Below are positions 1 to 64,000 of a DNA stretch of 64,000 nucleotides, one piece after another. The translations under genes were made by a program, and so were the position numbers. How positions within the stretch are numbered: position 1 is the stretch's first letter; the number at the start of each line of letters is the position of its first letter. This stretch comes from a virus, in IMG/VR virus record IMGVR_UViG_3300031774_000001. One strand, written 5' to 3'. The notes under the pieces were generated by a model. It searched no databases. It worked only from the letters and a program-made list of their open reading frames with translations, and had not been told where the DNA came from.

Positions 1-1809
1 GGTAGACCTAATACATATTATTCATTGTATGGTATTGCAATGTTAGATTATCTTGATTTATATAAATGGTTTATACCAGTAAGACAAGAGAGTTATAGAT
101 TATCTCATATAGGTGAAACTGAATTAGGTGAATCTAAAGTAGATAATCCATATGATACTTTTAAAGATTTCTATACAAAAGATTATCAAAAATTTGTAGA
201 GTATAATATTCAAGACGTAGAAATAGTTGATGGTTTAGAAGATAAGTTAGGTCTAATTGATTTATCTTTAACCTTTGCATATGAAACTAAAGTAAACTAT
301 AACGATATATTCTCACAGGTAAGAGTTTGGGATACATTAATCGCAAACCACTTGATGACAAAAAAGATTTGTGTACCTCCTAGGGAAGACCACATAAAGG
401 ACACCAAGTATGAAGGTGCGTATGTAAAAGAACCTAGACTTGGTATGCAAAAATGGGTGGTGTCTTTTGATATCAACTCACTTTATCCACATATTATTGT
501 ACAATATAATATTTCTCCCGAAAAGATATTAGGTGTTAAACCATCTGGTGTTTCTGTGAATAAAATGCTTGATAAGAAGACACCCCTAGATTATTTAAAA
601 ACAGAAGGTGCTTGTATAACACCTAATGGTGCAATGTTTAAAAATGATAGTCAAGGTTTTTTACCTGAAATGATTGAAAAGATTTATAAAGACCGTGTGA
701 TATATAAGAAACGTGAATTAAAAGCAAAGAAAGAATATCAAAATAATCCAACAATAGAATTAAAAAAAGAAATTGCTAGGTGCCACAATGTACAATGGGC
801 AAGAAAGATTGCGTTGAATAGTTGTTATGGTGCAATAGGTAATCAATACTTTAGATACTATGATATAGCACAAGCAAGTGCTGTAACTACAGCAGGTCAG
901 TTTATAATCAGATTTATAGAACAAAAAGTAAATGAATATTTAAATCAAGTATTACAAACACACGGTGAAATAGATTATGTACTAGCGTCTGATACAGATT
1001 CAATATATGTTTCATTAGATAAACTTGTAGAGAAAACTTGTAAGGGTAAAACAGACCAACAAATATGTGATTTTATAGGTAAGGTATGTGATAATAAATT
1101 AGAACCTTTTATTGCAAAACAATTTGAAGATGTTGCAGATTATACTAACGCATACAAGAACGCAATGGTTATGGCACGTGAAGTTATTGCTAACAAAGGT
1201 ATATGGGTTGCGAAAAAAAGATATATGTTAAACGTATTAGATGAGGAAGATGTTAGATTGTCTGAACCTAAATTAAAGATTATGGGTATAGAGGCAATTA
1301 AATCTTCAACTCCACAAGTATGCCGAGGTAAGATTAAAGAAGCAATTAAAATAATTATGTCAAAAGAAGAATCTGATTTACATACTTTCATTGCAGATTT
1401 TAAAAAAGAATTTATGAGTATGTCTGCTGAGCAGATATCATTTCCTAGGTCTTGTAATAATATGAGAAAATATGGTAGTAGTAAAGATGTGTTTATCAAA
1501 GGTACACCAATACACGTTAAAGGTTCATTGATTTATAATCATCAAGTAAAACAATTTGGATTACAGAATAAGTATCCTTATATTCAAGAAGGAGATAAGA
1601 TTAAATTTATTAAATTGTTAGCGGCAAATCCATTTAAGTTTGATGTGATTAGTTATATAACTAAACTACCAAAAGAGTTTAATCTACAAGAATATATTGA
1701 TTATGAAGTACAGTTTGAGAAAACTTTCCTAGACCCTATGAGATTTATATTGAATTCAATAGGTTGGGAACACGAAAAGAAAGCAAGTCTGGAGGCGTTT
1801 TTTGGATGA
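1..1809 (+). CDS. gp43: T4-like family B DNA polymerase (5'-truncated by window edge)
   Basis: Motifs SFDINSLYPHII, KIALNSCYG, ASDTDS, KKRY; frame is open from base 1. Confidence 0.97.
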   Translation, partial: GRPNTYYSLYGIAMLDYLDLYKWFIPVRQESYRLSHIGETELGESKVDNPYDTFKDFYTKDYQKFVEYNIQDVEIVDGLEDKLGLIDLSLTFAYETKVNYNDIFSQVRVWDTLIANHLMTKKICVPPREDHIKDTKYEGAYVKEPRLGMQKWVVSFDINSLYPHIIVQYNISPEKILGVKPSGVSVNKMLDKKTPLDYLKTEGACITPNGAMFKNDSQGFLPEMIEKIYKDRVIYKKRELKAKKEYQNNPTIELKKEIARCHNVQWARKIALNSCYGAIGNQYFRYYDIAQASAVTTAGQFIIRFIEQKVNEYLNQVLQTHGEIDYVLASDTDSIYVSLDKLVEKTCKGKTDQQICDFIGKVCDNKLEPFIAKQFEDVADYTNAYKNAMVMAREVIANKGIWVAKKRYMLNVLDEEDVRLSEPKLKIMGIEAIKSSTPQVCRGKIKEAIKIIMSKEESDLHTFIADFKKEFMSMSAEQISFPRSCNNMRKYGSSKDVFIKGTPIHVKGSLIYNHQVKQFGLQNKYPYIQEGDKIKFIKLLAANPFKFDVISYITKLPKEFNLQEYIDYEVQFEKTFLDPMRFILNSIGWEHEKKASLEAFFG

Positions 1810-1949
1810 TAGACCAGTTATTATTTCTAGCTATTATAGTATTTGCTGTAAGAGTAGGAGAGATATTTGCTATGACTAAAATATCATTTTGGAAGTTTTG
1901 TTTAATGTTATTATTAATTAAATTTGTGGCGGTAAGTTATGTTAGTTAA
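1806..1949 (+). CDS. small membrane protein
   Basis: ATG overlaps the gp43 stop (ATGA); two hydrophobic stretches. Confidence 0.6.
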   Translation: MIDQLLFLAIIVFAVRVGEIFAMTKISFWKFCLMLLLIKFVAVSYVS

Positions 1950-2844
1950 CGAAGAAAGTTTAAAACATTTAAAAACACTTAAAGAGAATACGTTTGATTC
2001 GTGTGTAACTGATCCACCATATCATTTGGCGTCTATACTTAAACGATTTGGACCAGGTCAAAAAGGAATTAATAATAAAGATGAGAAAGAAGGTCGTAAT
2101 GGACCTTATCATAGAGCTGCAAAAGGATTTATGGGACAGACTTGGGACGGTGGTGATATAGCATTTAATAAAGATTTTTGGAAAGAAGTATATAGAGTTA
2201 TGAAACCTGGTTGTGTTCTATTGGCATTTGCTGCCACTAGAAATTATCATAGAATGGCAGTTGCAATTGAAGACGCAGGTTTTGAAATTTTTGATATGAT
2301 AAACTGGATATATGGTAGTGGATTTCCTAAAAGAAAAAATTATTTGAAACCTGGTCACGAACCTATTGTAATGGCACGTAAAGGAGTTAATAAAAGTTTA
2401 AACATAGATGAGAGTAGAGTACCTGGATATGAGTGGGACACAACTAAAAACAGAAGAGAACCTAAAAAACATAAAGAAGCAGTTTATAAATTAGGTTTAA
2501 AGAAAACAGGTGCAGGAGAAAAAATAAAAGGAAGATATCCTGCTAATGTTATACACGATGGAATAGCAGAAGAGTGGGCAAAGTATTTTTATTGTCATAA
2601 GGCAAGTAAAAAAGAAAAAGGAGATACTGAACACCCTACAGTTAAACCATTAGATTTAATGAGATATCTTGTTAAGTTAGTTACACCTAAAGATGGTACA
2701 GTATTGGATCCATTTGCAGGTACAGGTACTACTGGTGAGGCTGCATTATTAGAAGGTAGAAAATACTATTTAATAGAAAGAGAAAAGAATTATTTTAAAG
2801 ACATAGAGAATAGATTAAAGAAAGTGAATAAGTTTTTTGTATGA
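1939..2844 (+). CDS. DNA N6-adenine/N4-cytosine methyltransferase, beta-class motif order
   Basis: TDPPY (motif IV) near N-terminus; HPTVKP and LDPFAGTGTT (motif I) near C-terminus. Confidence 0.93.
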   Translation: MLVNEESLKHLKTLKENTFDSCVTDPPYHLASILKRFGPGQKGINNKDEKEGRNGPYHRAAKGFMGQTWDGGDIAFNKDFWKEVYRVMKPGCVLLAFAATRNYHRMAVAIEDAGFEIFDMINWIYGSGFPKRKNYLKPGHEPIVMARKGVNKSLNIDESRVPGYEWDTTKNRREPKKHKEAVYKLGLKKTGAGEKIKGRYPANVIHDGIAEEWAKYFYCHKASKKEKGDTEHPTVKPLDLMRYLVKLVTPKDGTVLDPFAGTGTTGEAALLEGRKYYLIEREKNYFKDIENRLKKVNKFFV

Positions 2845-2936
2845 CATTATTACTTGCATTGACTTTATCAGCTTTATGTATTATAATACCAATGTTATTA
2901 TTAATATTATGGAACAATGAAAAACCTAGACCTTAA
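2841..2936 (+). CDS. 31-aa single-TM peptide (not in ORF track)
   Basis: MTLLLALTLSALCIIIPMLLLILWNNEKPRP; ATGA overlap with upstream stop. Confidence 0.5.
   Translation: MTLLLALTLSALCIIIPMLLLILWNNEKPRP
2859..2887 (+). promoter_or_regulatory. sigma70-type promoter for the second methyltransferase
   Basis: TTGACT-17nt-TATAAT. Confidence 0.75.
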
Positions 2937-4146
2937 ACAATACGCAAACGAAAATAGACTGCCTATAATGGACACTATTCAATTTGATAGATGGACAGAA
3001 GAGTTAGGTAAAGAAAAATTTAGAGAATTATTATCAGAATATATTGCTGAAAATAGACCAGAATTTCCTTTAAGAAAAATATCTTATGATGATATGCGTA
3101 ATAATATAATTGCATTATCAAAGTATGATACTTCTGCTATATGTACACCTAAAGAACAAATAACTAAAGATGTATTTGAAAAGTATGAAGATTACAAATA
3201 TAATTTTAAAGAATATGGTTTAGGTATCATAGATGGTCCTAATACATTTAATACTTCTTCTAATTATTTTATGCAAGAGTTGAGATTAAATTGTTCTAGT
3301 TATGGATTTAGAGCGCCGATAGAAGTTTGGCAAAATGGTAATGCAAGAGATATATGGAAGTGTTTAGGTCCTATATGGAGAGGTATTAATACAAAAAGAG
3401 TTTTAGATGAAGATGTATATATGAGTGCATTTAGATTGGGTACATATATTGCAACACAATTTAAACCAGTTGTTGCAAAAACAATATATGATTTAACCAA
3501 TGCAGAAACAGTATTAGATACCAGTTGTGGTTGGGGAGATAGACTTGCTGGTTTCTTTGCTAGTAAGGCAACACACTATTATGGTTGTGATCCTAATCCA
3601 AATACATATAGAATATATCAAAAACAGATAGAAGAGTATAGTAAATTCTTTAAAAACAAAACTGTTAAGATATGGAATTGTGGTGCAGAAGACTTACCTT
3701 ATAATGAACTACCAAATATAGATTGTGCATTTACAAGTCCACCTTACTTTAGTACTGAACAATATAATAAAGGTGGTGAGAAAGAAGAGAATCAATCTTG
3801 GTTTAAGTTTAATGAATATGAACAATGGAGAGATAATTTTTATCTTCCAGTTGCAGAAAAGACTTTAAGTAAATCAAAATATATGTTTGTTAATATTATG
3901 GATCCAAAAATTAAGACTGTAAGATATAGGTCAAGTGATGAACTAGTTGATAGATTTAAAGATAAGTTTTTAGGTCAGATTGGTATGAGAATTATGCAAA
4001 GACCACAAGGTAATAAGAAATTTAAGACTAAAGAAGAGTTAAATATCTTTATGGCTATGACTTATATTGAAAATGTATGGTGTTTTGGTGAGAAGATAGA
4101 CCTATTTAAGAATTCAAGATTAGGGACGCTAGAGGCATTTATATAA
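2917..4146 (+). CDS. DNA amino-methyltransferase (SPPY type, possibly N4-cytosine)
   Basis: VLDTSCGWGDRL (motif I) followed by FTSPPYF (motif IV). Confidence 0.88.
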   Translation: MKNLDLKQYANENRLPIMDTIQFDRWTEELGKEKFRELLSEYIAENRPEFPLRKISYDDMRNNIIALSKYDTSAICTPKEQITKDVFEKYEDYKYNFKEYGLGIIDGPNTFNTSSNYFMQELRLNCSSYGFRAPIEVWQNGNARDIWKCLGPIWRGINTKRVLDEDVYMSAFRLGTYIATQFKPVVAKTIYDLTNAETVLDTSCGWGDRLAGFFASKATHYYGCDPNPNTYRIYQKQIEEYSKFFKNKTVKIWNCGAEDLPYNELPNIDCAFTSPPYFSTEQYNKGGEKEENQSWFKFNEYEQWRDNFYLPVAEKTLSKSKYMFVNIMDPKIKTVRYRSSDELVDRFKDKFLGQIGMRIMQRPQGNKKFKTKEELNIFMAMTYIENVWCFGEKIDLFKNSRLGTLEAFI

Positions 4147-4149
4147 ATA
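4142..4149 (+). promoter_or_regulatory. T4-type late promoter
   Basis: TATAAATA just upstream of the ORF at 4153. Confidence 0.6.
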
Positions 4150-4152
4150 TGT

Positions 4153-4326
4153 ATGAGAATAACAGTATATAGAAGATATAATGATTACATTAGTCAAAAT
4201 TTTCTACCAACGGAACTTGACTCGGTAAGAGAATTATGTTATATTAACAACATCAAATGGTACACAATAAGTTATACGGAAGAGGAGTGGAACGAATATG
4301 AAAGACTTTCTAAAAGAAATAATTAA
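4153..4326 (+). CDS. 57-aa hypothetical protein (not in ORF track)
   Basis: [15 protein letters not shown]...; fills the gap before uvsX. Confidence 0.55.
4217..4245 (+). promoter_or_regulatory. sigma70-type promoter upstream of uvsX
   Basis: TTGACT-17nt-TATATT. Confidence 0.6.
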
Positions 4327-5323
4327 AGAAACAGGAAATGAATTTGCTAGTTTAGCAAGTGATGGAATCACAGCAGGTGATGTAACTTCATTTATAGATA
4401 CAGGTTCTTATTCTTTTAATGCTCTCTTATCAGGTTCAATTTATGGTGGACTACCAGGCAACCGTATAACAGCAATCGCAGGCGAGGCCGCAACTGGTAA
4501 AACATTTTTTGCATTAGGTATTTTAAAAAATTATTTAGATAAAGACAAAGACGCAGGCGTTGTTTTATTTGAATCAGAAAATGCAGTATCAAAAGATATG
4601 ATAGAGGCAAGAGGTGTTGATAGTTCCAGAGTTGTAGTTGTACCAGTATCAACAGTACAAGAATTTAGAAGTCAATCAATAAAAATATTAGACAAGTATT
4701 TACAACAATCAGATTCAGAAAGAAAACCTTTGATGTTTGTATTAGATAGTTTAGGTATGTTATCTACTACAAAAGAAATGACAGACACAGCAGAAGGTAA
4801 AGAAACAAGAGATATGACTAGAAGTCAAATAGTCAAATCTACATTTAGAGTTTTAACACTTAAACTAGGACAAGCAAATGTTCCTATGTTAATGACCAAT
4901 CACACTTATGATGTTATTGGTTCTATGTTCCCACAAAAAGAAATGGGTGGCGGTTCAGGATTGAAATACGCTGCCTCTACAATCATCTATCTAGGTAAAC
5001 GAAAAGAAAAAATCGGTACAGAAGTAGTTGGTAATATTATTCATTGCAAAACCTATAAGTCAAGAATCACAAAAGAAAATTCTCAAATTGATGTTAAGTT
5101 AACATATAAAAGAGGACTAGATAAACATTATGGTCTTCTTCAACTTGGTGAAGAGGCAGGTATCTTTAAGAAAGTATCAACAAGATATGAAATGCCAGAT
5201 GGTTCTAAAGTATTTGGTAAAGCAATCAATGATGAACCAGAAAAATATTTTACAAAAGAAGTATTAGAAAAAATAGATGAACACGCAAGACAAAAATTCA
5301 CATACGGATCAGACGAAGAGTAA
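4298..5323 (+). CDS. uvsX: RecA-like recombinase UvsX
   Basis: AGEAATGKT Walker [20 protein letters not shown]. Confidence 0.96.
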
Positions 5324-7982: not shown

Positions 7983-9368
7983 ATGGCATACGAAGCTTCA
8001 GAAATCTGTACAGCGGCAGCATTAATGTTTACTACAGATGAACTAAAAAAATTACAAGTAGGTTTTAATTCAAACAAATTAGATAGGGATGATTTAGTTG
8101 AAAAACTAGAAGAAGCTAAATCACTTATGAAAATTGGTAGACCTAAAGCTAAAGTTGGCCAGGTTGTTTTTGCAGATGGTTCGCAAGAACAAGGGTTTAT
8201 GAAAATACTTGATTCAAGTAATGATAAAATCTTAAGCGATTTTGCTGTAGGTATATCAGCTGCATTAGGTATTCGTGGTTTTGCTAGAAAAAAAGGCGAC
8301 AATCAACCAACTAAAAAAGTTTTTATGACTGGCTCTAAATGGCCTAGTGAGATTGAAAAGTTTTCTTTACCTGAAGGTGGAGGATATCAATATAATTCTG
8401 CTGATATAATGGTTGAAAATAATTCTGCTAAAGCAAGAGTAAAAAAATATTACGGCATTTCTTTAAAGAAAAAATCAACTCAAAAGGCTACCCCACCACC
8501 ACTTATTAATAAAGCATTTGATAGACTTATAGAAGGTGATTCAACCTTTAATAAATTAATGAAAGATGTTGATGAGTTTAAGTATAAATTTTTTGCTGAT
8601 AGATTAAAGCAAGCAATTACCAATAAAATTATAAAAATAAAAGGCTTTTCATTACCATCAAACAATAAAGAAATATTTTATAAAACAATTAAGCATCCTT
8701 ATAAAACAGGAAACATAAAACTAATTGATTTAAAAGGTGAAGGAGTAATAAAAAATAACTTTGATATTAAAAAGGCAGCAGATAAAATTTTAATTCAAAA
8801 ATTATTTGCAAAAAATAAAGATGGCTCAGGAGATTTACCAAATACACAATGGAAATTGAGAAAGTTTATGAACGAATCTTTATATGGTGGTTCTAAAAGT
8901 AAATATTGGCAAGGTGTATTAAAACTTATGAATGAATATGCTGAAAAATTTGCAGAAGGTCTTATTGATGTTATTTTAAAAGTTAATTTATTCAATAAAT
9001 TAAAAAAGAAAGATATAGATGAAGCGGAATTTGATTTTCAATTGACAACAGGTGTAGGTAATGTTACCTCAAAGGGTAATGTAACTGTAGGCAATTCAGT
9101 TGACTTTCAAGTTAATACTTTACTTTGTGGCTATCATAGAATTGAGAAAAAAATGAAAGGTAAGAAGTGGGAAATTGTTATGAGGGATGAAAGTGTTAAA
9201 GGTGATTCTGTTGAAGAAGCAGCTAAAATTAAAATGTGGTTAAAGAGAGGTAATGTTAAAATATTTAATTTAGAATTAAGATATAAAGGTGCCTTCGGAT
9301 CACAACCACAATTTACAGGAACTCTACATCCAGAATTTAAAGAATTGTTAGAGAAAGAATGTACATAA
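7983..9368 (+). CDS. hypothetical protein, possible PD-(D/E)xK-like nuclease
   Basis: Lys-rich; SADIMV...YYGISLKKK resembles a restriction-endonuclease core. Confidence 0.45.
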   Translation: MAYEASEICTAAALMFTTDELKKLQVGFNSNKLDRDDLVEKLEEAKSLMKIGRPKAKVGQVVFADGSQEQGFMKILDSSNDKILSDFAVGISAALGIRGFARKKGDNQPTKKVFMTGSKWPSEIEKFSLPEGGGYQYNSADIMVENNSAKARVKKYYGISLKKKSTQKATPPPLINKAFDRLIEGDSTFNKLMKDVDEFKYKFFADRLKQAITNKIIKIKGFSLPSNNKEIFYKTIKHPYKTGNIKLIDLKGEGVIKNNFDIKKAADKILIQKLFAKNKDGSGDLPNTQWKLRKFMNESLYGGSKSKYWQGVLKLMNEYAEKFAEGLIDVILKVNLFNKLKKKDIDEAEFDFQLTTGVGNVTSKGNVTVGNSVDFQVNTLLCGYHRIEKKMKGKKWEIVMRDESVKGDSVEEAAKIKMWLKRGNVKIFNLELRYKGAFGSQPQFTGTLHPEFKELLEKECT

Positions 9369-10650: not shown

Positions 10651-13383
10651 ATGAAGTTTAAAGAATTTTTATTACAAGAAGGTTTATATGACCCAGGTAT
10701 ATTTAAAGCTTTCTTTATGGCAGGAGGACCTGGTAGTGGTAAATCATTTATCGCTAGTAATACTTTTGCAGGTTCTGGATTAAAATTTGTAAATTCAGAC
10801 CAAGTATTTGAAAGAGGTTTAAAGAAGGCAAATCTTTCAGATAAAATGCCTGACCAAGAAAAATATTTTAGAGATATTATAAGAAATAATGCCAAAGGTA
10901 CAACAAAAAGACAATTAGATACTTATGTAACTGGTAGATTAGGTTTAGTTATTGACGCAACTGGAAGAGATTATGGAAGAATAAGTGCAGAATATAATCA
11001 ACTACACTCATTAGGTTATGATTGTTATATGATATTTGTTAACACAACATTACCTGTTGCGTTAGAAAGAAATCAAATTAGAAGTAGAACTATACCAGAA
11101 TATATTGTTAAATCATCTTGGGAAAAAGTACAATCTAATATAGGTAAGTTTCAAAGATTATTTGGTCAATCAAATTTTATTGTAGTAGATAACAATAGGT
11201 CAGATAAAGAACTAGTGTCACAAACTTTACAAAACTGTGACAGATTAGTTAGACGATATATGAGGCAGCCAATTAAAAGTTATCTTGCAAAAACTTGGAT
11301 GACAAAAGAAAAAATGTACAGAAACAAATTAAACGAAAGTATTATAGACGCTCCTAGAAATACATATGCACCTGGAGTTTTTGATGACTATGAAACTAAA
11401 ACACCTAGAATTAAACCTAGTGTTAGAGAAATAGTTGACAATCAACTTAAAGAATTTGGTAAAGAATATCCAGTTTTAAAAGTTAGTTTAGTAGGTTCTA
11501 TACTTACAAAGAGATATAGAAAGGACGCAGATTTAGATTTTAATGTACTGTTTGATGTACCTGTAGATAAACAAGAAGAAGAAAGATTAAGATTATCTCA
11601 TAAGTATCTATCTGCTAAAAGTCCAGAAAAGATTAATGGTAAATTAATACCTGATACACAACACCCTATTAACTATTACATCATTACTGATCCTATAACT
11701 CATCAAGACCAAGAGGATAAAGCAGACGCAGTATTTGATTATAGAGGTAATGTATTTACTAAAAGACCAGCAGACTATACGTTTGATATGAAATTATATA
11801 TGTCAGCATATCAAAGAAAGGTACAAGAGATAGATGTAGTTAAAGGAGAATTAAAAAGAGATATTATAGACTATGATGAATTAAAAGATTTACAACCAGA
11901 TGATATTTTAAACTTACAAGAAAAGATTAATGAGAAGTTAGAAGAGATTGAACAATCTATAAAAGATATTGTTGATATTGGAGATGATGTATTAACTGCT
12001 AGAAGAGCTGCGTTTGATTCTGATATGACACCAGAACAAATTAAAACGTTTAGTATTAAAAATAGATTACCTAAAAATGTAGTCTATAAGTTATTAGAGA
12101 AATATCATTACTTAAAATTCTATAAGAAATGTAAAGAGATATTAGATGATAATAAAGTTACAGACGCTGAGATAGATAGTTTAAAATCTGAAGCAGTTGC
12201 TGATAAGTCTATTGCAATTACATTTGGAAGATTTAATCCACCTACAATAGGTCACGAAAAACTTATTAATAAAGTTGTAAGAGCAGATAGAAATTATAAA
12301 ATCTATATCAGTAGGTCAGAAGATAGTAAAAAGAATCCATTATCTGCTAGAGAAAAATTATCTTTTATGAAAAAGATGTTTCCACAATATGCTAGAAACA
12401 TTGAAATCAATACAACAAATATGATTTTAGATTTAGCTACTATGTTATATAACAAAGGACATAATATTTTAAAATTTGTTGTAGGTAGTGATAGAGTAAG
12501 AGAGTTTGATACTATACTTAAAAAGTATAACGACCAGAAAAATAGACACGGATACTATAACTTTAAAACAATAGATGTTATATCTGCTGGAGAGCGTGAT
12601 CCAGACGCTGAAGGCGCTTCAGGTATGAGTGCGAGTAAGATGAGGGATGCTGCTCAAAAAGGTGATGTGGCGTCATTTAAGAGAGGACTACCATCTCAAT
12701 TTAGAGATGTTGATGGACTGTTTAAAGCGGTCAGAAAAGGTATGGGTATAAGAGAAGACTATAAACCAGATATTTCAAAACCTGTTATGACATTAGGACA
12801 GTTTGAACAGAAACAAGTTAGAGACCTATACGTTAGGGAGATGATATTCAATATCGGAGACCAGGTCAAGTATCTTAAAGAAGATAAACAAGGTAAAGTA
12901 GTACGAAGAGGTACGAACTATGTTGTATTAGAAGATACAAATAATAATTTACACAAATGTTGGATATGGGATTGTATTCCAGTTGCCGCTGATAAAGAAC
13001 CAATGTTAAGAGAGTACAACCTAGATATTGATTATGGATTTGAAGCAGTTGAAACAATACCAGTACCAAAACCATACTCACAAATTAAAGATAGTTATGA
13101 AATAGGTGCTGATTATGCTAATCATTGTAAGCAAATGACACCAGGAGAGAAAGAGGACGCACCTCCTGTTGACTCAAAAGACCGTGGAAAACCTACTGAT
13201 ACATACATATCACGACCAGGTAAGGCTACGGATGCTAAAGTTGGTGAGGATAAATTAACTAAAAATGAAGTAAAAGAATGGGCAACTTCAGATTCAGTAA
13301 TAGATAAATATAAGGAACGTTATAAAGAAGAGTGGAAAGCGAAACTAAACGAAGTAGTCGCAAAGATGATTGAGAAACTTTAG
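10651..13383 (+). CDS. three-enzyme fusion: P-loop (zeta-toxin-like) kinase + Pol-beta-like nucleotidyltransferase + HxGH cytidylyl/adenylyltransferase
   Basis: GGPGSGKS; GSILTKRYRKDADLD; FGRFNPPTIGH, VGSDR and MSASKMR. Confidence 0.85.
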   Translation: MKFKEFLLQEGLYDPGIFKAFFMAGGPGSGKSFIASNTFAGSGLKFVNSDQVFERGLKKANLSDKMPDQEKYFRDIIRNNAKGTTKRQLDTYVTGRLGLVIDATGRDYGRISAEYNQLHSLGYDCYMIFVNTTLPVALERNQIRSRTIPEYIVKSSWEKVQSNIGKFQRLFGQSNFIVVDNNRSDKELVSQTLQNCDRLVRRYMRQPIKSYLAKTWMTKEKMYRNKLNESIIDAPRNTYAPGVFDDYETKTPRIKPSVREIVDNQLKEFGKEYPVLKVSLVGSILTKRYRKDADLDFNVLFDVPVDKQEEERLRLSHKYLSAKSPEKINGKLIPDTQHPINYYIITDPITHQDQEDKADAVFDYRGNVFTKRPADYTFDMKLYMSAYQRKVQEIDVVKGELKRDIIDYDELKDLQPDDILNLQEKINEKLEEIEQSIKDIVDIGDDVLTARRAAFDSDMTPEQIKTFSIKNRLPKNVVYKLLEKYHYLKFYKKCKEILDDNKVTDAEIDSLKSEAVADKSIAITFGRFNPPTIGHEKLINKVVRADRNYKIYISRSEDSKKNPLSAREKLSFMKKMFPQYARNIEINTTNMILDLATMLYNKGHNILKFVVGSDRVREFDTILKKYNDQKNRHGYYNFKTIDVISAGERDPDAEGASGMSASKMRDAAQKGDVASFKRGLPSQFRDVDGLFKAVRKGMGIREDYKPDISKPVMTLGQFEQKQVRDLYVREMIFNIGDQVKYLKEDKQGKVVRRGTNYVVLEDTNNNLHKCWIWDCIPVAADKEPMLREYNLDIDYGFEAVETIPVPKPYSQIKDSYEIGADYANHCKQMTPGEKEDAPPVDSKDRGKPTDTYISRPGKATDAKVGEDKLTKNEVKEWATSDSVIDKYKERYKEEWKAKLNEVVAKMIEKL

Positions 13384-22211: not shown

Positions 22212-23408
22212 ATGAAAATATTATGTATATTATATGATGACCCAAAAGACGGAATGCCAAAATCATATCCAGTCAAAGACTTACCAAAATTAGAAAAGTA
22301 TCCAGATGGTATGACATTACCATCTCCTAAAGGAAGAGATTTCAACGCAGGAGAATTATTAGGTTGTGTTTCTGGTGAATTAGGATTAAGAAAATTTTTA
22401 GAAGACGCAGGACATACTTTAGTAGTTACGTCTGATAAAGACGCTGATGGTTGTACAGCAGATAAAGAATTAGTTGACGCAGATGTAGTCATTTCACAAC
22501 CATTTTGGCCTTACTATCTAACAAGAAAAAGAATAGAGAGTGCTCCAAAATTAAAGATGGCAATTACAGCAGGAATTGGTTCTGACCACGTAGATTTACA
22601 AGCGGCTATGGATCATAAAGTTGATGTAGTTGAAGTAACTTATTGTAATAGTAGAAGTGTTGCGGAACATATTGTTATGATGATACTAGCACTAGTTAGA
22701 GATTATCACAATCAATATAAAATAGTTAACGAAGGTGGTTGGCATATCGCAGACGCAGTTAAACGTTCTTATGATGTAGAAGGTATGCATATAGGAACAA
22801 TTGCCGCTGGTAGAATTGGTTATGATATGTTAAGAAAAATGAAACCATTTGATGTACACTTACATTACTTTGATAGACATAGATTGCCAGAAGAAAAAGA
22901 AAAAGAATTAGGTTTAATCTATCACGAATCAGTAGAAGATATGGTTAAAGTTTGTGATGTAATTAATATAAGTTGTCCTTTACATCCTGAAACTGAACAT
23001 ATGTTTAATGATGATTTAATTAGTAAGTGTAAAAAAGGTGCTTACATAATTAATACAGCAAGAGGAAAGATTTGTGATAAGGATGCTATTGCAAGAGCAG
23101 TAGAGTCAGGACAATTAAGTGGCTACGCAGGTGATGTATGGTTTCCACAACCAGCACCTAACGACCACGTATGGAGAACAATGCCTCATCACGGTATGAC
23201 ACCACACACTTCAGGTACTTCACTATCAGCGCAGACTAGATATGCAGATGGTGTAAGAGAAATACTTGAATGCTTTTTTGATGGTTCAGAAATTAGAAAT
23301 CAATATCTAATTGTTAAAGATGGAGACCTTGCAGGTATGGGTGCTCACTCTTACTCAAAAGGAACTGCTACTGGTGGTTCAGAAGAGGCGGCAAAGTTTA
23401 GGAAGTAA
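22212..23408 (+). CDS. fdh: NAD-dependent formate dehydrogenase (metal-independent)
   Basis: Follows the Pseudomonas sp. 101-type FDH along its length: ISQPFWP, TAGIGSDH, AAGRIG, DRHR, NTARG, GDVWFPQPAP, MTPH.SG, SYSKG.ATGGSEEAAKF. Confidence 0.95.
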   Translation: MKILCILYDDPKDGMPKSYPVKDLPKLEKYPDGMTLPSPKGRDFNAGELLGCVSGELGLRKFLEDAGHTLVVTSDKDADGCTADKELVDADVVISQPFWPYYLTRKRIESAPKLKMAITAGIGSDHVDLQAAMDHKVDVVEVTYCNSRSVAEHIVMMILALVRDYHNQYKIVNEGGWHIADAVKRSYDVEGMHIGTIAAGRIGYDMLRKMKPFDVHLHYFDRHRLPEEKEKELGLIYHESVEDMVKVCDVINISCPLHPETEHMFNDDLISKCKKGAYIINTARGKICDKDAIARAVESGQLSGYAGDVWFPQPAPNDHVWRTMPHHGMTPHTSGTSLSAQTRYADGVREILECFFDGSEIRNQYLIVKDGDLAGMGAHSYSKGTATGGSEEAAKFRK

Positions 23409-23574: not shown

Positions 23575-23660
23575 AGACAGTATATACCTTAGCGGGTATT
23601 GTCGCAGTATTAGGAATTGTTATAGGTATAAGTGGTTATTTTATATTTCTACTTATTTAA
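23571..23660 (+). CDS. 29-aa TM peptide
   Basis: MKTVYTLAGIVAVLGIVIGISGYFIFLLI; ATGA overlap. Confidence 0.4.
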   Translation: MKTVYTLAGIVAVLGIVIGISGYFIFLLI

Positions 23661-25281
23661 TAGAATAACAATTAATCTTTTCTTTTTTACCTTTTACGGT
23701 ACAAATACCTAGTTTATAAAACTTAAAGTCTAAATCTTTTTTAGTATTTTGAGATATTACTATTGTAGTATTGAAATCTTTACTCTTACCTTCTAATCTA
23801 CTTGCCAAATTAACAGCGTCACCAATGACAGAATAATCAAAACGTTGTTCAGACCCCATATTACCTACAAGACACTCGCCAGTATTGATACCTATACCAA
23901 TGTTTAAAGGTGGGTCAAACTCTCTACTCTTATTCATTTTTCTAACTGTTTCTCTCATTTCGTATGCAGATAATACTGCTAGTTTTTTGTGTTGAGGTGT
24001 ATCAAGTGGTGCGTTCCAAAATGCCATTATACAATCGCCCATATACTTATCAATAGTACCACCATTTTTTAATATTATACCCGTCATTGCAGTTAAAAAT
24101 TTGTTAACATATCGGGTAAGTTTTTCTGGATTACCTTTCATAGATTCCGATATAGGAGTAAAGCCACGTATATCAGAAAATAAAAACGTCATTTCTTTTC
24201 TTTCACCACCAAGTTTTAATAGAGATGGATTCTTTTGTAGTTTCTTAACCATATCAGGAGATAGGTAGTGTTCAAATTGTTTCTTAATTTGTAGTCTTAA
24301 TTTATTTTCTTTTGCATAGTTTTGATACGTTAATTGACCCCATATAATAGAACCTATTACAAGAGGACTAAACCAATCAGTTATGATTAAGTGTTGTGTC
24401 CATAGATAAGAACTTGCAAGTGTTAAATCAAATAAGTATCCACCAAACCATATCGCAGACCATATCACACTACATCTAGGTATAACTATGAGAAAGAATA
24501 GAGCACCTAATATTATAAATGCTAATTCACTATGTGGTAACCAATAAGGTCTACTAATAAAATTACCTGACAATAAAGTTTCTGTACTGATTGCCATAAT
24601 TTCGTGTGTGTTCTTTAAACCATTCGGAGTAGTTACAAACGTTGAACCTTTGAACGTTGTACCTATGAAAACTATTTTACCTTTTACAGACGACCAATCT
24701 TTATCAGTAAAATCTATTCTAGGAATATGGTGTCTGAAATCTATCCAAATAGTATCTTCTGCTGATGTTTTTGCATTGATAACTTTTAAGATAACATCAG
24801 GTATGGATTTATCAAGTGGTAATTTTCTTATAGTACCATCTATATCAACTGGTACAGATACATTACCTATTGCAAGTGCTTTACGTGAAATACTTTGTAG
24901 ATTTTTTACTTCATCCGTTTCAGTAAGTATGACTGGATATTTTGAAATCATTTTTAAAAATACTTCATCACCACCTAATCTATCTTTATGTGGGAAGACT
25001 ACTTGAAGAACTACTAGAGCGGCACCATTTTTATATGCGTTAATTATAACACGACCAAGTAAATCTCTTTTCCACGGCCATTGTCCATTCTTTTTTAATG
25101 CTTTATCTGAAATGTCTATTAGAACTAAACTCCTTGATTCATAATTCTTACCAAATGATTGGTAGAAATCAAAGGTGTTTAGCTTTGCTGTCTGTAGCAG
25201 TACTGGATTTGATAAGTATATTCCTAGCAATATTATCAAAGTTAGATATACAGTCCACGATTTAGCCAATATTTTAATCAT
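23653..25281 (-). CDS. CHASE2-domain class III adenylate cyclase
   Basis: N-terminal TM; CHASE2 (LIDISD..L...GQWPWKR, DIDGTIR); 3 TMs; FSDIRGFT, DKYMGDCIMAFW, FDYSVIGDAVNLASRLE, VKGK. Confidence 0.93.
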   Translation of the reverse strand: MIKILAKSWTVYLTLIILLGIYLSNPVLLQTAKLNTFDFYQSFGKNYESRSLVLIDISDKALKKNGQWPWKRDLLGRVIINAYKNGAALVVLQVVFPHKDRLGGDEVFLKMISKYPVILTETDEVKNLQSISRKALAIGNVSVPVDIDGTIRKLPLDKSIPDVILKVINAKTSAEDTIWIDFRHHIPRIDFTDKDWSSVKGKIVFIGTTFKGSTFVTTPNGLKNTHEIMAISTETLLSGNFISRPYWLPHSELAFIILGALFFLIVIPRCSVIWSAIWFGGYLFDLTLASSYLWTQHLIITDWFSPLVIGSIIWGQLTYQNYAKENKLRLQIKKQFEHYLSPDMVKKLQKNPSLLKLGGERKEMTFLFSDIRGFTPISESMKGNPEKLTRYVNKFLTAMTGIILKNGGTIDKYMGDCIMAFWNAPLDTPQHKKLAVLSAYEMRETVRKMNKSREFDPPLNIGIGINTGECLVGNMGSEQRFDYSVIGDAVNLASRLEGKSKDFNTTIVISQNTKKDLDFKFYKLGICTVKGKKEKINCYSIK

Positions 25282-25337: not shown

Positions 25338-25796
25338 ATGAGATTAATTAGTTTTATTTTAGCAGTATTATTGTTCGTTCCTAGTGCCTACGCAAGTGAA
25401 TTGGGGTTTAAATTTCATAGTCCATCATTTTCAGGTCAAGGTAAGTCTTCACACTATCTAACGATAGAGAACATTGAAAAGACTAGGAAAGACGCCATAA
25501 AAGCAGCCGAAAAAGCGGCGGCAGATAAAGTAATAGCAGACGCTAAAAATACAGCAATAGCAAAATTCAAAGCAAATGTTGAATCAAGATTTTATACAGC
25601 ACTTGCTAAACAAATTACAGACAACGTTTTTGGTACAGATGGTCTACAACAAGACTCTGGAACATTTACATCACCTATTGGTGGTGAAGTTGTTGAGTGG
25701 ACAACACCATCAGGTACAGGTAATGTAGTTGTAACTGTTACAGAATCAGACGGAACTGTAACGACATTTACAATGCCTAAAGAGGATAACTCATAA
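25338..25796 (+). CDS. csgF: curli assembly protein CsgF-like
   Basis: Signal peptide, then SELGFKFHSPSFSG (CsgF N-terminal F.NP.FGG motif); C-terminal V.VT...G.VT. Confidence 0.85.
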   Translation: MRLISFILAVLLFVPSAYASELGFKFHSPSFSGQGKSSHYLTIENIEKTRKDAIKAAEKAAADKVIADAKNTAIAKFKANVESRFYTALAKQITDNVFGTDGLQQDSGTFTSPIGGEVVEWTTPSGTGNVVVTVTESDGTVTTFTMPKEDNS

Positions 25797-34900: not shown

Positions 34901-35996
34901 AAGCGTATTTAATACAGAAAAAAAATTAGACTATACTAAACAACCTATGTTTTTTGGTCAAGATTTACAAGTACAAAGATATGATGAAATGAAATATCCT
35001 ATCTTTAATAAACTCTTTCAACAACAATTAGGTTACTTCTGGAGACCAGAAGAAGTATCTTTACAGAAAGATATATCAGACTATAAAGAGTTAAATGAAC
35101 AACAAAAGTTTATCTTTACATCTAATTTAAAATATCAAACAATGATGGATAGTGTGCAAGGACGAGGACCGGCTTTAGCATTTTTACCTTTTGTTTCAAT
35201 ACCTGAATTAGAGAGTTGTGTTCTTGCGTGGGACTTTTTTGAAAACATACACTCTCACTCATATACATATATCATTAAAAATTTATATTCAAATCCTAGT
35301 GAAGTTTTTGATACTATAATTTCAGATGAAAAGATTGAGAAAAGAGCAATTAGTATAACACAAAGATATGATGATATGATAAATTTAGGTTATAAATGGC
35401 AATTAAAACCAGATAGTGTTGATATGTATGAGTTGAAAAAGAAATTATATTTAACATTGATGACTGTTAATATATTAGAAGGATTAAGATTTTATGTTTC
35501 TTTTGCGTGTTCGTTTGCATTTGGAGAATTAAAAATGTTAGAAGGTTCTGCTAAAATATTATCATTAATAGCACGTGATGAAACTTTACATTTATCAATC
35601 TCACAAAGAATACTTAATAACTATCGTGATAATGAAAATGATAGAATTATGAATAAAGTGATGAAAGATACAGAAAAAGAAGTTTATACAATGTATGAAA
35701 ATGCAGTAGGACAAGAGAAACGTTGGGCGACTTATTTGTTCTCTAAAGGTTCTATGATAGGATTATCAGAAAAACTATTACATCAATTTGTAGAGTATAT
35801 GGCAAATAGACGTATGAGAGCAATAGGATTAGAACCACAATATGACCAAAAAGTAAATCCATTACCTTGGGTTGACCATTGGTTAAATAGTAGGTCATTA
35901 CAAAATGCACCACAGGAAACAGAAATTGAAAGTTATGTCATAGGTGGCATTAAACAAGATGTACAAAAGGATCAGTTTAAGAAATTTAAATTATAA
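34893..35996 (+). CDS. nrdB: class Ia ribonucleotide reductase beta subunit
   Basis: FWRPEEV, ENIHSHSY, LEGLRFYVSF, ARDETLH, APQETEIESY. Confidence 0.97.
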   Translation: MTKSVFNTEKKLDYTKQPMFFGQDLQVQRYDEMKYPIFNKLFQQQLGYFWRPEEVSLQKDISDYKELNEQQKFIFTSNLKYQTMMDSVQGRGPALAFLPFVSIPELESCVLAWDFFENIHSHSYTYIIKNLYSNPSEVFDTIISDEKIEKRAISITQRYDDMINLGYKWQLKPDSVDMYELKKKLYLTLMTVNILEGLRFYVSFACSFAFGELKMLEGSAKILSLIARDETLHLSISQRILNNYRDNENDRIMNKVMKDTEKEVYTMYENAVGQEKRWATYLFSKGSMIGLSEKLLHQFVEYMANRRMRAIGLEPQYDQKVNPLPWVDHWLNSRSLQNAPQETEIESYVIGGIKQDVQKDQFKKFKL

Positions 35997-39143: not shown

Positions 39144-39696
39144 CTGTGATGGTGTCCTTTTAGACTGGTGTTTTGCTTTTGACATTTGGATGAGTGAACA
39201 AGGATATACTAGAATGCCTGAAACGGATCATTACTTTAGTCAATCAAAACGATATAACATACCCGAAAAAGAAGCATTAGAACAAGTTAATTTATTTAAT
39301 CAAACAGGAGTGTTAGGATTTGTACCAGCATATAAAGATAGTGTTGAGTATGTAACTAGATTGGCAAGAGAAGGTTATAGATTTGATGTTATTACTATGA
39401 TTGGACCTGACAAGTATGCTCATAAGTTAAGAAAAGCAAATTTAAGACATTTATTTGGTGATGTATTTGATGAAATATATTGTGCAGGAGATTTTAAACA
39501 ACCTAAAAAAGAAATTTTAGAAGAAAGATATAAAGGAACAAATTATGTTTGGATTGAGGATAGAGTTGATTATGCAATGCAAGGTGATGAAGTTGGTTTA
39601 AATACATTTATGATGGATCATCCTTATAATAGAGAATATAAAGGACAACGAGTGAAGAATTGGAAAGAATTATATGACACCACATTTAGAAGCTAA
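39124..39696 (+). CDS. HAD hydrolase (T4 gp30.2-like)
   Basis: TDCDGVLLDW, WIED, HPYN. Confidence 0.8.
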   Translation: MKKIITDCDGVLLDWCFAFDIWMSEQGYTRMPETDHYFSQSKRYNIPEKEALEQVNLFNQTGVLGFVPAYKDSVEYVTRLAREGYRFDVITMIGPDKYAHKLRKANLRHLFGDVFDEIYCAGDFKQPKKEILEERYKGTNYVWIEDRVDYAMQGDEVGLNTFMMDHPYNREYKGQRVKNWKELYDTTFRS

Positions 39697-40339
39697 AATT
39701 GGTGATTATGCTGATACAGTATTATTACCTGGTGATCCGTTAAGAGCAAAATGGATTGCAGAAACATATTTAGATAATGTAAGACAAGTTAATAGTGTGA
39801 GAAATATGTTAGGCTTTACAGGAACATATAAAGGTAAATCTATATCAGTACAAGGAGGTGGTATGGGTATGCCTTCAAACGCAATTTACATACACGAACT
39901 TTATAATACGTATAATGTAAAAACTATTATAAGAGTGGGTAGTTGTGGTGGTATTCATAAAAATTTAAATGTAGGCGATATAGTTGTAGCTACAAGAGCA
40001 ATTACAGACAACGCAATGATAAATGTATCTGTTGTTGAAGGATCAAGTGATTTGTTAAATGCTTATATGAAAGTTGCACCTGAAAATACTATGCAAGGAT
40101 ATATCAAGTCTAGTGATTGGTTTTATAATCCAAATAAAGATTGGTGGAAAGATGAAAATATTGCAATAGCAGTTGAAATGGAAACACATATATTATATAA
40201 TTTAGCAAATAAATTTAACAAGAAAGCATTATCAGTATGTACAGTTGCAGACCATTTTGAAAAACCAGAAGATATGACTTCTAAAGAAAGAGAAACTAGT
40301 TTTAAAGCAATGATAGAGAGTATATTAAAAATATGTTAG
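39674..40339 (+). CDS. deoD: purine nucleoside phosphorylase
   Basis: MTPH, LPGDPLRAKWIA, GMGMPS, IRVGSCG, VEME. Confidence 0.92.
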   Translation: MTPHLEAKIGDYADTVLLPGDPLRAKWIAETYLDNVRQVNSVRNMLGFTGTYKGKSISVQGGGMGMPSNAIYIHELYNTYNVKTIIRVGSCGGIHKNLNVGDIVVATRAITDNAMINVSVVEGSSDLLNAYMKVAPENTMQGYIKSSDWFYNPNKDWWKDENIAIAVEMETHILYNLANKFNKKALSVCTVADHFEKPEDMTSKERETSFKAMIESILKIC

Positions 40340-41307
40340 TCTTTGTAACACCTAAAAGAAGTGAAGAACATAAAGTGCCTTATTCTTATAGAACAAGAGC
40401 AAATATAGTATCGGAGAATATATTTGATAGTAGAGTTACAGATGATATTAAAACTTTACAACAAAATGATGTTGCAGTATTAGGTAAAAGACATACAAGA
40501 GAGGATGCTGAATATTGTATAAAACACGATATTAAATATATTGTTGATGTTGCAGATGATAAGTTTACAATGTTTAAGCATTGGTATCATACAATACCAA
40601 AAGCAACAGCAGTTACTACAACTTGCCAGCATTTAAGAACAATTATATTAGATGAAGTTGGTAAAGGTTCTGTTATTATACCTGACCCTACTGAAAGAAA
40701 AAGAGGTGTACCAAAGTTTGAAGTAAAAGAAACTATGAAAGCATTTTATTATGGTGCAGAAGGTAATTATAGAAAAATAGATTGGTTAAGAGTTAAATCA
40801 ACTTTAAATTCTGTAAGAAAAACTAGAGTTGATATTATGACAAATAAATCAGAAGATCCACCTAAAGCTTACAAATATTTAAATAGATATGGACAATTTT
40901 GGTTAACACCAGAAGATAGAATAGCATTACAGAAAGAAGGTGTTAAAGAATATACCAGTTTAATAAATTGGAACTTTGATAAACAAGAGCAGTTAGTTAA
41001 TGAATCCGATTTTGTTTTATTACCAGTTACTTCTGATAGAGAATCAAGAAGTAAAGGAAATAATAGACCTATTGACGCATTGCAACAAGGTAGAATAGTA
41101 TTAACCAATCCAGGTATAAAGAGTTATGAAGATTTAAAAAAATACTTATATATAGGTGATTTTTATACAACGTATAAATTAATGCTTGAAAATCCTGAAG
41201 AAGTATTATCAAAAATTAGAAATGCTCAAACGTATATAAATGAACATTATACACCAAAAGCAATAGGATTGAAGTGGAAAAGAGTATATGACAGACTACA
41301 TAAATAG
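40333..41307 (+). CDS. glycosyltransferase-like protein
   Basis: DVADD, IPDP, SKGNNR..DAL..G in a glycan-gene context. Confidence 0.55.
   Translation: MLVFVTPKRSEEHKVPYSYRTRANIVSENIFDSRVTDDIKTLQQNDVAVLGKRHTREDAEYCIKHDIKYIVDVADDKFTMFKHWYHTIPKATAVTTTCQHLRTIILDEVGKGSVIIPDPTERKRGVPKFEVKETMKAFYYGAEGNYRKIDWLRVKSTLNSVRKTRVDIMTNKSEDPPKAYKYLNRYGQFWLTPEDRIALQKEGVKEYTSLINWNFDKQEQLVNESDFVLLPVTSDRESRSKGNNRPIDALQQGRIVLTNPGIKSYEDLKKYLYIGDFYTTYKLMLENPEEVLSKIRNAQTYINEHYTPKAIGLKWKRVYDRLHK
41299..41306 (+). promoter_or_regulatory. late promoter variant
   Basis: CATAAATA before the sugar-synthesis genes. Confidence 0.5.
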
Positions 41308-47556: not shown

Positions 47557-48352
47557 TATACCTTGGGATAAATGTTTAAGTAAACAATTGTTTCCTGCTA
47601 TAGAAAAAGGATGGTCAAGTGAAGGCAGACCTACTCATTTCTTTTGGGGACTTGCAGGTAAAAATATAAAAGGTATAAGAGAGTGCATAGAGAAAAATGA
47701 AGAGTGGTGGTATGTAGATGTTGGTTATTTAACACAACCAATTACAAGATATCCAGAACCAATTATACACGATTACGATAAGACATATTTTAGAATATGT
47801 AAAGGTAATTTACATACGATAAGAGGTAAAGTAGGGCCTGGAACACGATTACAGAAACTAGAGCATCTTGGGATAGATGTAGATTTTAAAGGGTGGAATA
47901 CTGGAGAAACAACTCATATACTAGTAGCACCTTCTTCTCAAACAGTAACTTACCATATTAATGGAATAAGTCAAGACGATTGGATTAAACAAGTTACAGA
48001 AGAGATTAAGAAACATACAGATTTACCTATTAAGTTTAGAAACAAACCTAGACCTGGTAATGAGTGGTGGGATACTGATATAAAAGATGATTTAAAAAAT
48101 GCTCATTGTTTGGTAACCAATATGAGTTTAGCTGGTGTTGACGCAATATTAAATCAAGTACCTGTTATATGCCATCAAAGAAATGTATGCTCATTTATAT
48201 CATCAAAGGATATAAAGTATATAAAGAAACCTATGAGAGCAGGAAGAAAGACTGTAAATGAGTGGTTAAAAATGATTGCAGAAAATCAATTTACAATACC
48301 TGAAATTGAAGATGGAACTGCTTATAGAATATTACAGGAACAAAACGTATGA
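47540..48352 (+). CDS. putative glycosyltransferase / capsule-synthesis-like protein (paralog of 45191)
   Basis: WYVDVGY, DDLKNAHCLVT..S, NQFT.PEIEDGTA. Confidence 0.55.
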   Translation: MIVTHNIPWDKCLSKQLFPAIEKGWSSEGRPTHFFWGLAGKNIKGIRECIEKNEEWWYVDVGYLTQPITRYPEPIIHDYDKTYFRICKGNLHTIRGKVGPGTRLQKLEHLGIDVDFKGWNTGETTHILVAPSSQTVTYHINGISQDDWIKQVTEEIKKHTDLPIKFRNKPRPGNEWWDTDIKDDLKNAHCLVTNMSLAGVDAILNQVPVICHQRNVCSFISSKDIKYIKKPMRAGRKTVNEWLKMIAENQFTIPEIEDGTAYRILQEQNV

Positions 48353-54152: not shown

Positions 54153-54775
54153 TGAACAAATACATTAAGATTTTATCAGTTGCTGTCTTTGGTCTGTTAT
54201 TGACTAATTGTGCAGGAAATTATAAAATCAAAAGTGAAAAAGGTAAAGTAGTTAATACTGTTCCAAAATGGTATATGGCTGATTTTTCTGAAACTAAAGC
54301 TTGTGATATAGCAAGATTTGGTAAAGGTAAAGAAAAGCAATGTATATTTGGAGTTGGTACTAGCGTTTCACCAGACTTGAATCTCGCAATTGAGAAAGCT
54401 AAAATGATAGCGAAAGCTGAATTAGCAGACATTATCAAAGGGGAGATGAATAAAGAGTCGAAACAATTTATTACTGAAATTGGTAAACATAACAGTAAGA
54501 ACGTTGTTAGTGAAGTAGAATCTGTATTGGTCAATATTATTAAAGATACACCAGTTAGAGGATATGAAATATTTGAGCAAGATGTAACCCTTACAAAAAA
54601 TGGTTATTATAGAGCTTGGATAGGCTTAAGATTGCCATTAGGTGAATATAATAAAATGTTCAACTATACAATTGCTGAAGCTACAGACGCTTATAACTTA
54701 AAGTATCACGCTAATAAGTCATTTGAGAAACTTATGAAAAAAGAAGAGGTTTCAGATGGACAAGTTAGTAATTAA
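54152..54775 (+). CDS. LPP20-like lipoprotein
   Basis: Lipobox LTNC, VPKWY, GVG...S.DL.LA.EKA...AKAELA. Confidence 0.75.
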   Translation: MNKYIKILSVAVFGLLLTNCAGNYKIKSEKGKVVNTVPKWYMADFSETKACDIARFGKGKEKQCIFGVGTSVSPDLNLAIEKAKMIAKAELADIIKGEMNKESKQFITEIGKHNSKNVVSEVESVLVNIIKDTPVRGYEIFEQDVTLTKNGYYRAWIGLRLPLGEYNKMFNYTIAEATDAYNLKYHANKSFEKLMKKEEVSDGQVSN

Positions 54776-58881: not shown

Positions 58882-58898
58882 TAAAAAAAGGATATATT

Positions 58899-61691: not shown

Positions 61692-61696
61692 AATAT

Positions 61697-63255: not shown

Positions 63256-63258
63256 TAA

Positions 63259-63729: not shown

Positions 63730-63813
63730 GAGGTAAATACTCTTAATAATGAGCAAATAAAGGAACGTAAGAAACTTACCGACCATTATATGCTACACAG
63801 GTCTATTTAAGCA

Positions 63814-63842
63814 TTGACAAAGTGCTAATATAATGTTATTAT
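63814..63842 (+). promoter_or_regulatory. sigma70-type promoter
   Basis: TTGACA-17nt-TATTAT. Confidence 0.6.
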
Positions 63843-63848
63843 AAGATT

Positions 63849-64000
63849 ATGAATATACAAAAGCAGATTACAGTATTAAAAGATACAATCAAGTGGTTTA
63901 GAACTCAAATTGAACCACACGATTGTGGATGGATGTACACAACAATAGACGGTATCAAACACCGAATAAGTGATTTGAGAAAGAAATTGAGGAAACAAAA
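63849..64000 (+). CDS. hypothetical protein (3'-truncated)
   Basis: MNIQKQITVLKDTIKWFR...HDCGWMYTTI. Confidence 0.55.
   Translation, partial: MNIQKQITVLKDTIKWFRTQIEPHDCGWMYTTIDGIKHRISDLRKKLRKQ

Follow-up and report, generated by a model that had tools for sequence, protein, structure and literature searches.

Why would a phage lose a short word from its genome in every sequence context except one? The question is raised by the IMG/VR virus record IMGVR_UViG_3300031774_000001, of which a stretch of 64 kb was analysed (below, the window; GC content 31.1%, 90 of the 93 called open reading frames, or ORFs, on the plus strand). An earlier look at this DNA, here called the original prediction, had claimed that GATC and GATGC are tolerated almost only within GGAT. 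We found that this flank-conditional purge is real and strong, that it involves more words than these two, and that its exceptions are conserved in related phages and absent from podophages that share a host strain with one of these relatives. With slightly better than even confidence we infer that such exceptions reflect a phage-borne, context-specific DNA mark.

Words lost except beside one base

Word counts are given as sites observed/expected, and O/E denotes their ratio. H stands for A, C or T and D for A, G or T, so that HGATCD is [ACT]GATC[AGT]. Expected counts for the window were taken from 200 synonymous-codon shuffles among the 93 called ORFs, which preserve the proteins and the codon usage.

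All 49 GATC sites of the window are GGATC or GATCC, exactly as had been claimed: TGATCC 15, GGATCA 15, GGATCC 7, CGATCC 6, AGATCC 4 and GGATCG 2. In the codon-aware count HGATCD is far from its normal level, with no site against 91.3 +/- 6.5 expected (z = -14). On the other hand, GGATC is found 56 times against 67.5 +/- 5.8 expected, and GGATCC 7 times against 5.2. The z scores of the complete words are -13.7 for GATC, -15.9 for CATG, -11.2 for GATGC and -9.5 for TCGA. The second word follows the same rule: HGATGC is observed once against 64.9 +/- 5.3 expected, and GGATGC 9 times against 9.3. Thus 9 of the 10 surviving GATGC sites are GGATGC or GCATCC, and the single deviating site noticed earlier near 47862 lies at 47863. 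At all 10 the next base is T. One G, on whichever strand, spares GATC (GGATCA 30/19, all six HGATCD hexamers 0), which is what a mark on a single strand would do. The second flank also has an influence, as GGATCT is depleted (4 sites against 23 in the codon shuffles and 18 from base composition only).

The loss acts through synonymous codons. Before a codon starting with C, and with a base other than G in front, aspartate is encoded 60 times by GAC and never by GAT, although window-wide usage is 1020 GAT and 343 GAC; with G in front there are 8 GAT and 1 GAC. Arginine before a TCN codon is AGG (14) or CGT (6) and never AGA, which occurs 644 times elsewhere, and isoleucine ATC after a codon ending in HG is found 0 times of 165. 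The synonymous dodges of the original prediction, AGG before TCN and GAC before C-starting codons, are therefore real, as is the selection against GATC and GCATC at synonymous sites that it had proposed. Depletion relative to a null that preserves proteins and codons is one hallmark of phage restriction-site avoidance, and the window displays it.

Several other words obey one-neighbour rules, so that the flank-conditional pattern is wider than the two words noticed originally. HCTAAG is absent (0/53) and GCTAAG is kept (11/16), all 11 surviving CTAAG sites being of this form. Similar pairs are DCAGAG 3/45 and CCAGAG 8/11, GAGACD 3/41 and GAGACC 11/8, and DCATCG 0/26 and CCATCG 3/6. The flank-spared forms occur at their expected frequency. 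Other words are purged without any flank exception, namely CATG (0/123), TCGA (1/64), CASTG (CACTG, 0/39), CCGG (1/16) and CGCG (0/8), and dozens of further 5-7-mers are depleted. Two words are about half depleted, CATTC (45 sites against 105) and AGCT (82 against 181). The partial depletion of AGCT has no context dependence at positions +/-1 in the window, and the word is nearly absent from two related genomes considered below, G003 and G004 (8/164 and 9/154).

The rules in relatives and in podophages of one host strain

By gene content and order the window belongs to a pelagimyophage, a T4-like phage of the HTVC008M type; a SAR11-type host is not itself shown. Proteins of the cultured Pelagibacter phage HTVC008M are matched by 46 of the 93 ORFs (28-78% identity), and those of a complete IMG/VR genome of 177,460 bp with terminal repeats (G001) by 83 (about 45-99% protein identity, the majority above 60%), in both cases mostly collinearly. 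The window has curli-type genes and a GC content within 30-35%, and its own gene set fits the published features of the group, curli-type genes and a sugar-nucleotide cluster (PMC7029224). Two scans of IMG/VR with the two methyltransferase-like genes of the window, MT1 and MT2, as queries provided 133 related loci from marine metagenomes.

Most of these loci lack HGATCD, CATG and TCGA and have GGATC at a normal level. In G001 HGATCD is 0/353, GGATC 136/159 and CATG 0/500; G precedes GATGC at 40 of 50 sites, and the flanks of GATGC, CTAAG, CAGAG, GAGAC and CATCG match those of the window, with CTCAG following a rule as well. Pooling the 28 loci that carry MT1 gives O/E of 0.01 for HGATCD and 1.41 for GGATC. 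HTVC008M observes the flank rules for those words that it avoids (HGATCD 0/306, GGATC 111/148; HGATGC 9/123, GGATGC 14/25).

A third site type appears in the relatives. Wherever GANTC is purged (HTVC008M, G003, G004), its survivors are preceded by G. In HTVC008M GGATTC is 22/48 against 6/246 for the three other flanks of GATTC, and GGACTC is 15/24 against 0/123; G003 and G004 behave likewise. Since G-preceded GATC, GATGC and GANTC are all spared, a rule of the GGA or GGAT type covers three unrelated site types, and since GGACTC is among the spared forms, the context is GGA rather than GGAT.

The treatment of GGATC itself is graded across relatives. It is spared in most, survives only as GGATCC in G002 (19 sites), and is lost from G003 and G004 (2/55 and 0/52), which still spare GGATGC (4/9 and 3/7), GGANTC and GCTAAG. 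Hence one GGAT mark cannot explain both the loss of GGATC and the sparing of GGATGC. Within the spared class, four genomes show the second-flank gradient GGATCA > GGATCC > GGATCG > GGATCT. The grading would fit nucleases of differing sensitivity, for instance GATC cutters blocked by adenine modification, such as MboI, and by cytosine modification, such as Sau3AI. The cyanomyophage S-MbCM100 was uninformative as a comparison, since GATC is not avoided in its genome and a Dam gene is present.

Podophages HTVC011P and HTVC019P, which grow on the same host strain as HTVC008M, have no GATC at all (0/80 and 0/88), including GGATC (0/36 and 0/44), and no GGATTC (0/12 and 0/14). Thus the selecting nuclease cuts GGATC, and the exception is peculiar to the myophages. 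CCWGG and GGWCC, also completely purged in both podophages, are kept by all myophages compared, which points to a property of myophage DNA.

The podophages bear on a simple alternative without any mark, in which the host nucleases are themselves degenerate (HGATCD, HGATGC, HCTAAG, GAGACD) and G/C-flanked copies are just not targets. Indeed, the rules are sharp and word-specific with a single rescuing edge (GCATCC is spared, GATGCC is not), the second-flank gradient would fit the half-site preferences of a dimeric enzyme, HTVC008M follows the rule lacking any recognisable methylase, and related phages differ as if they faced different enzymes, with only GGATCC left in G002 and nothing in G003 and G004. 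However, the podophages purge GGATC and GGANTC completely, every myophage keeps the CCWGG and GGWCC that they purge, and the alternative would need six or more independent nucleases, each rejecting sites with a G:C neighbour in a given orientation. We therefore consider degenerate targets an improbable explanation.

Some further words distinguish these phages. All four phages of HTCC1062 (HTVC011P, HTVC019P, HTVC010P and HTVC008M) purge AGTACT and GAATTC (0-1 sites each), both of which are kept by window-type phages. TCAAGA is lost (0/100) in HTVC008M only, and CCGG and CGCG are absent from the podophages together with CCWGG and GGWCC.

Methyltransferase genes and a candidate mark

The mechanism that we favour is as follows. 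A T4-like pelagimyophage would be exposed by SAR11-type hosts to many restriction-type nucleases, and their target words would be removed through synonymous codon choice. The copies kept would be those in which the adjoining base completes a GG/CC step beside A or T, namely GGATC, GGATGC, GGTCTC, CCAGAG and CCATCG, and GGANTC in relatives. A covalent, context-specific mark would be placed at such steps, and marking of one strand would suffice to keep sensitive nucleases from cutting both; insensitive nucleases, those of the CATG, TCGA and CASTG types, would lead to a complete purge. Judged by the flanks, GGAT describes what the rescuing contexts share less well than a GG/CC step beside A or T does.

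Candidate makers of the mark are located at the start of the window, where the gene order is polymerase, two methyltransferase-like genes, UvsX, and a DnaB-type primase-helicase (coordinates in Table 1). The first gene, MT1, scores 139.8 bits against Pfam PF01555 (E 1.7e-40, cut-off 26.7), and its motif IV (DPPY) precedes motif I (FxGxG), the order of beta-class N6-adenine/N4-cytosine enzymes. CcrM is its best relative both among solved structures (E 4e-17) and in NCBIfam. However, MT1 and a SAR11 CcrM share only 24% identity and differ in the segment at the target-recognition region; MT1 also reaches no more than 78.5 bits against a cut-off of 830 for the CcrM/HinfI equivalog NF050803, so that close CcrM orthology was rejected. 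All close homologs of MT1 are marine metagenome proteins on short phage-like contigs, and reading its specificity from the neighbours of bacterial homologs was dropped for this reason.

The second gene, MT2, is a probable amino-methyltransferase. It has both motif I and SPPY, although its PF01555 score of 24.0 bits is under the cut-off, and it is about 30% identical to phage genes annotated as N4-cytosine or DNA methylases; 240 related viral loci were found, and no solved relative by sequence search. A paralog of MT2, MT3, is encoded elsewhere in G001, and both carry SPPY. This signature is usual in N4-cytosine enzymes, as DPPY is in N6-adenine enzymes. Going by this signature and by the N4-methylcytosine motifs of marine viruses considered below, MT2 is the best candidate in the window for a putative cytosine mark at CC steps, whereas MT1 more probably covers GANTC.

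The slot between the polymerase and UvsX genes (1810-4297 in the window, 99535-100911 in HTVC008M) is variable. It contains MT1 and MT2 in the window, MT1 in G001, an unrelated MT-A70 gene with MT2 in 15 relatives (e.g. L079 9355-9900), and a divergent MT-A70 gene with a small ORF in 9 loci. No methylase is found there in G003 and G004, and in HTVC008M the slot is occupied by a weakly DruA-like protein (gp122). In yet other relatives MT2 is accompanied by a 170-aa ORF of no known family (L102 9448-9960). In G002, where GATC survives almost only as GGATCC, an additional PF01555 methylase of 231 aa is encoded just upstream of MT3 (L135 1378-2073); absent from the same place in the GATC-free G003, it is a candidate for BamHI-type protection.

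The original prediction had named one of the two genes, at 1939 or 2917, as the source of a GGAT/ATCC mark, and in its simplest form MT1 or MT2 alone would yield the GGATC and GGATGC exceptions. In GATC, GATGC and GATTC alike, the adenine open to methylation is the A of GGAT, and DPPY of MT1 suits an adenine enzyme. Tolerance of GGATC does track the slot methyltransferase: pooled O/E is 1.41 with MT1, 1.34 with the MT-A70 type of the 15 relatives (MT-A70a), 0.48 with the divergent MT-A70 (GGATCC being the sole form left) and 0.23 with none. However, the contrast with relatives lacking a slot methyltransferase is confounded with subclade (GC 30-31% against 33%), HTVC008M obeys the rule with neither MT1 nor MT2, and PF01555 and MT-A70, two unrelated families, would need one specificity, as the 15 MT-A70 relatives spare GGATC as well. 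MT1 phages, the MT-A70a phage G005 and the methylase-free HTVC008M have one and the same NGATCN profile; G003 and G004 lose GGATC and keep GGATGC and GGANTC; GGACTC is spared too, and the exceptions GCTAAG, CCAGAG and GAGACC contain no GGAT. We consider it unlikely that MT1 or MT2 produces the exceptions by such methylation, and a single GGAT-specific methyltransferase as the sole cause was rejected, given HTVC008M and the loss of GGATC with GGATGC kept in G003 and G004. Of the original claim, a protective mark near GGAT thus stands as the best reading, in view of the podophage contrast and the GANTC survivors, while neither gene emerges as its maker (HTVC008M, G003 and G004, and the 15 MT-A70 relatives).

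Tolerance of GANTC varies in parallel with the slot. The pooled O/E is 0.77 with MT1, 0.67 with MT-A70a, 0.09 with no slot methylase and 0.10 in HTVC008M, a weak hint that MT1 and MT-A70a are GANTC-type enzymes, given the low identity of MT1 to CcrM and a comparison confounded with subclade (GC of 30-31% against 33%). A search for words used differently in MT1 and MT-A70a loci gave only pseudo-replicated site differences.

Several observations weigh against a phage-borne mark at GG/CC steps. HTVC008M has no homolog of MT1, MT2, MT3 or MT-A70, no match to PF01555, PF02086, PF00145 or PF05063, and no plausible protein with a [DNS]PP[YFW] methylase motif; as far as gene content indicates, the phages that follow the rules share no single maker. 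G003 and G004 carry both MT2 and MT3, and yet have lost GGATC. The forms GATGCC, CAGAGG, CCATG (0/56), CCTAAG and GACTCC are not spared despite their GG/CC edge, so that this edge is not sufficient, and GCTAAG, CTCAGC and the T after GATGC instead share an AGC/GCT-type context. An origin of the GCTAAG and CTCAGC exceptions in RGCY was rejected, as their flanks are YGCT and AGCR. Finally, myophages and podophages of one laboratory strain may meet different nucleases in nature.

If the mark exists, at least one maker in HTVC008M, which has neither MT1 nor MT2, must be non-canonical. No TGT or DpdA match, which would indicate a 7-deazaguanine route, was found in G001, G002, G003, G005 or HTVC008M, and searches of PHROGs and Pfam with P0004 and several unknown slot ORFs gave no Mom-like or other known modification gene. 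One tentative possibility, to which we give well below even credence, is that pelagimyophages including HTVC008M carry an undescribed mark at GGA/TCC and CCA/TGG. Its enzyme would not belong to any known methylase family, a defined subset of many different restriction sites would be shielded, and the specificity of the mark could be read from flank usage.

Some other genes of the window are of separate interest. The sole long minus-strand gene (23653-25281) adjoins the curli-type genes and is 90% identical to its counterpart in G001 and 34% to the adenylate/guanylyl cyclase gene of HTVC008M. A 910-aa fusion at 10651-13383, kept in G001 and partly in HTVC008M, joins a kinase of the P-loop (zeta/AAA_33-like) type to a Pol-beta-type nucleotidyltransferase and a cytidylyltransferase-like domain. 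Accessory genes with no counterpart in G001 or HTVC008M are found at 7983-9368, 22212-23408 and 38400-41307. Their products include a nucleotidyltransferase, a HAD/5'-nucleotidase-like protein, a purine or uridine phosphorylase-family protein, a D-2-hydroxyacid dehydrogenase and two proteins of unknown function (324 aa, and 461 aa of phrog_3060).

Table 1. Genes and word sites of the window, and candidate restriction-modification loci of SAR11 genomes
Feature	Position	Strand	Remarks
Family-B DNA polymerase (gp43 type), C-terminal part	1..1809	+	Pfam PF00136; identity 95% to G001, 50% to HTVC008M; upstream edge of variable slot
MT1, beta-class amino-methyltransferase, 301 aa	1939..2844	+	DPPY at residue 25; FAGTGTT at ~260, near C-terminus; slot after polymerase gene
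MT2, probable amino-methyltransferase, 409 aa	2917..4146	+	N-terminal domain of ~190 aa; motif I DTSCGWGDR; SPPY at residue 283
UvsX/RecA-like recombinase	4298..5323	+	Pfam PF00154; 67% identity to HTVC008M UvsX; downstream edge of variable slot
Curlin repeat ORF	26910-27992		Curli-type genes span 25338-27992
GATC, only as GGATC/GATCC	1..64000	both	49 sites, first 2011, last 63624
Only CCGG	35169..35172	both	~16 expected
Sole GATGC without preceding G (AGATGCT)	47863..47867	-	Word count
Only TCGA	54458..54461	both	64 expected
SAR11 restriction-modification-like loci	L277 5285-6854; L278 3428-6946

Host systems, known parallels and meaning

SAR11 genomes contain the purged words at normal frequency (HGATCD 566/587, CATG 703/815); thus the hosts do not avoid them, and the pattern is specific to the phages rather than a shared mutation bias. 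Of more than 100 SAR11 genomes, a single one has been reported to have a restriction-modification system (PMC7029224). In a sample of 301 Pelagibacterales genomes we found no member of the DpnII family and none of the MutH/Sau3AI family, and a D12-class adenine methyltransferase in 19. In at least four genomes the latter adjoins a 182-aa protein, one database homolog of which is named a type II restriction endonuclease; its structural model (pLDDT, the predicted local distance difference test score, 95.5) matches the GIY-YIG restriction enzyme Hpy188I and T4 EndoII. Another SAR11 genome has two tandem D12 methyltransferases and a 542-aa ORF. By these similarities candidate restriction-modification systems exist in SAR11 at low frequency. 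TCNGA, the target expected of the Hpy188I-like enzyme, is not purged in any phage examined.

The low frequency of such systems and the normal word content of SAR11 would suit another explanation, that nucleases encoded by the phage itself to degrade host DNA recognise the purged words, the phage being safe because it lacks the sites, with flank rules set by these enzymes or by partner methylases; the purge is also absolute, as for CATG in G001. However, the purged words number in the dozens, and a phage could encode nucleases for only a small part of them; a scan of about 30 window ORFs revealed no restriction-type nuclease, the word sets lost from unrelated podophages overlap with those lost here, and some restriction-modification-like pairs do occur in SAR11. 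This explanation seems to us very improbable.

Compared with known systems, the flank-conditional purge is a new form of restriction avoidance, real, strong and conserved. The genome of Staphylococcus phage K, for example, is free of GATC. In lytic phages, surveyed in PMC6286503, short restriction-type words are likewise lost via synonymous codons, some 4-base palindromes entirely; here words are lost only in some flanks and kept at the expected frequency in one. A literature search found no paper describing flank-conditional avoidance or DNA modification of HTVC008M.

The closest analogue in working is Mom of phage Mu, an adenine modification in a short degenerate context that gives partial protection against many restriction enzymes, that is, a phage-borne short-context mark shielding only overlapping restriction sites. 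However, the Mom context S-A-S-N-Y does not fit GGAT, and no Mom homolog was detected here. We know of no genomic footprint of the flank-conditional kind described for Mu.

Closer in ecology are marine Myoviridae-like viral genomes, in which single-molecule real-time sequencing revealed shared N4-methylcytosine motifs CCWGG, GGWCC and RGCY and about two methyltransferase genes per genome (PMC8919816). They resemble the phages considered here in ecological group, in having several methyltransferase genes and in the CC/GG-step motifs, and the dominance of N4-methylcytosine may be compared with SPPY in MT2 and MT3. However, the published motifs are full palindromes not tied to site avoidance.

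The flank rules would show, from the genome sequence alone, against what and at which sites the phage DNA is protected, and turn an invisible mark into a prediction that can be tested on cultured phage. Surveys of motif avoidance that score whole words miss this flank-conditional layer. Should the mark be real and come from something other than a classical methyltransferase, a globally abundant group of viruses would have a new chemistry against restriction. No bacterial group in the sea is more abundant than SAR11, and the avoidance footprint of its large phages is among the heaviest seen; the defence of SAR11 populations has thus probably been under-counted.

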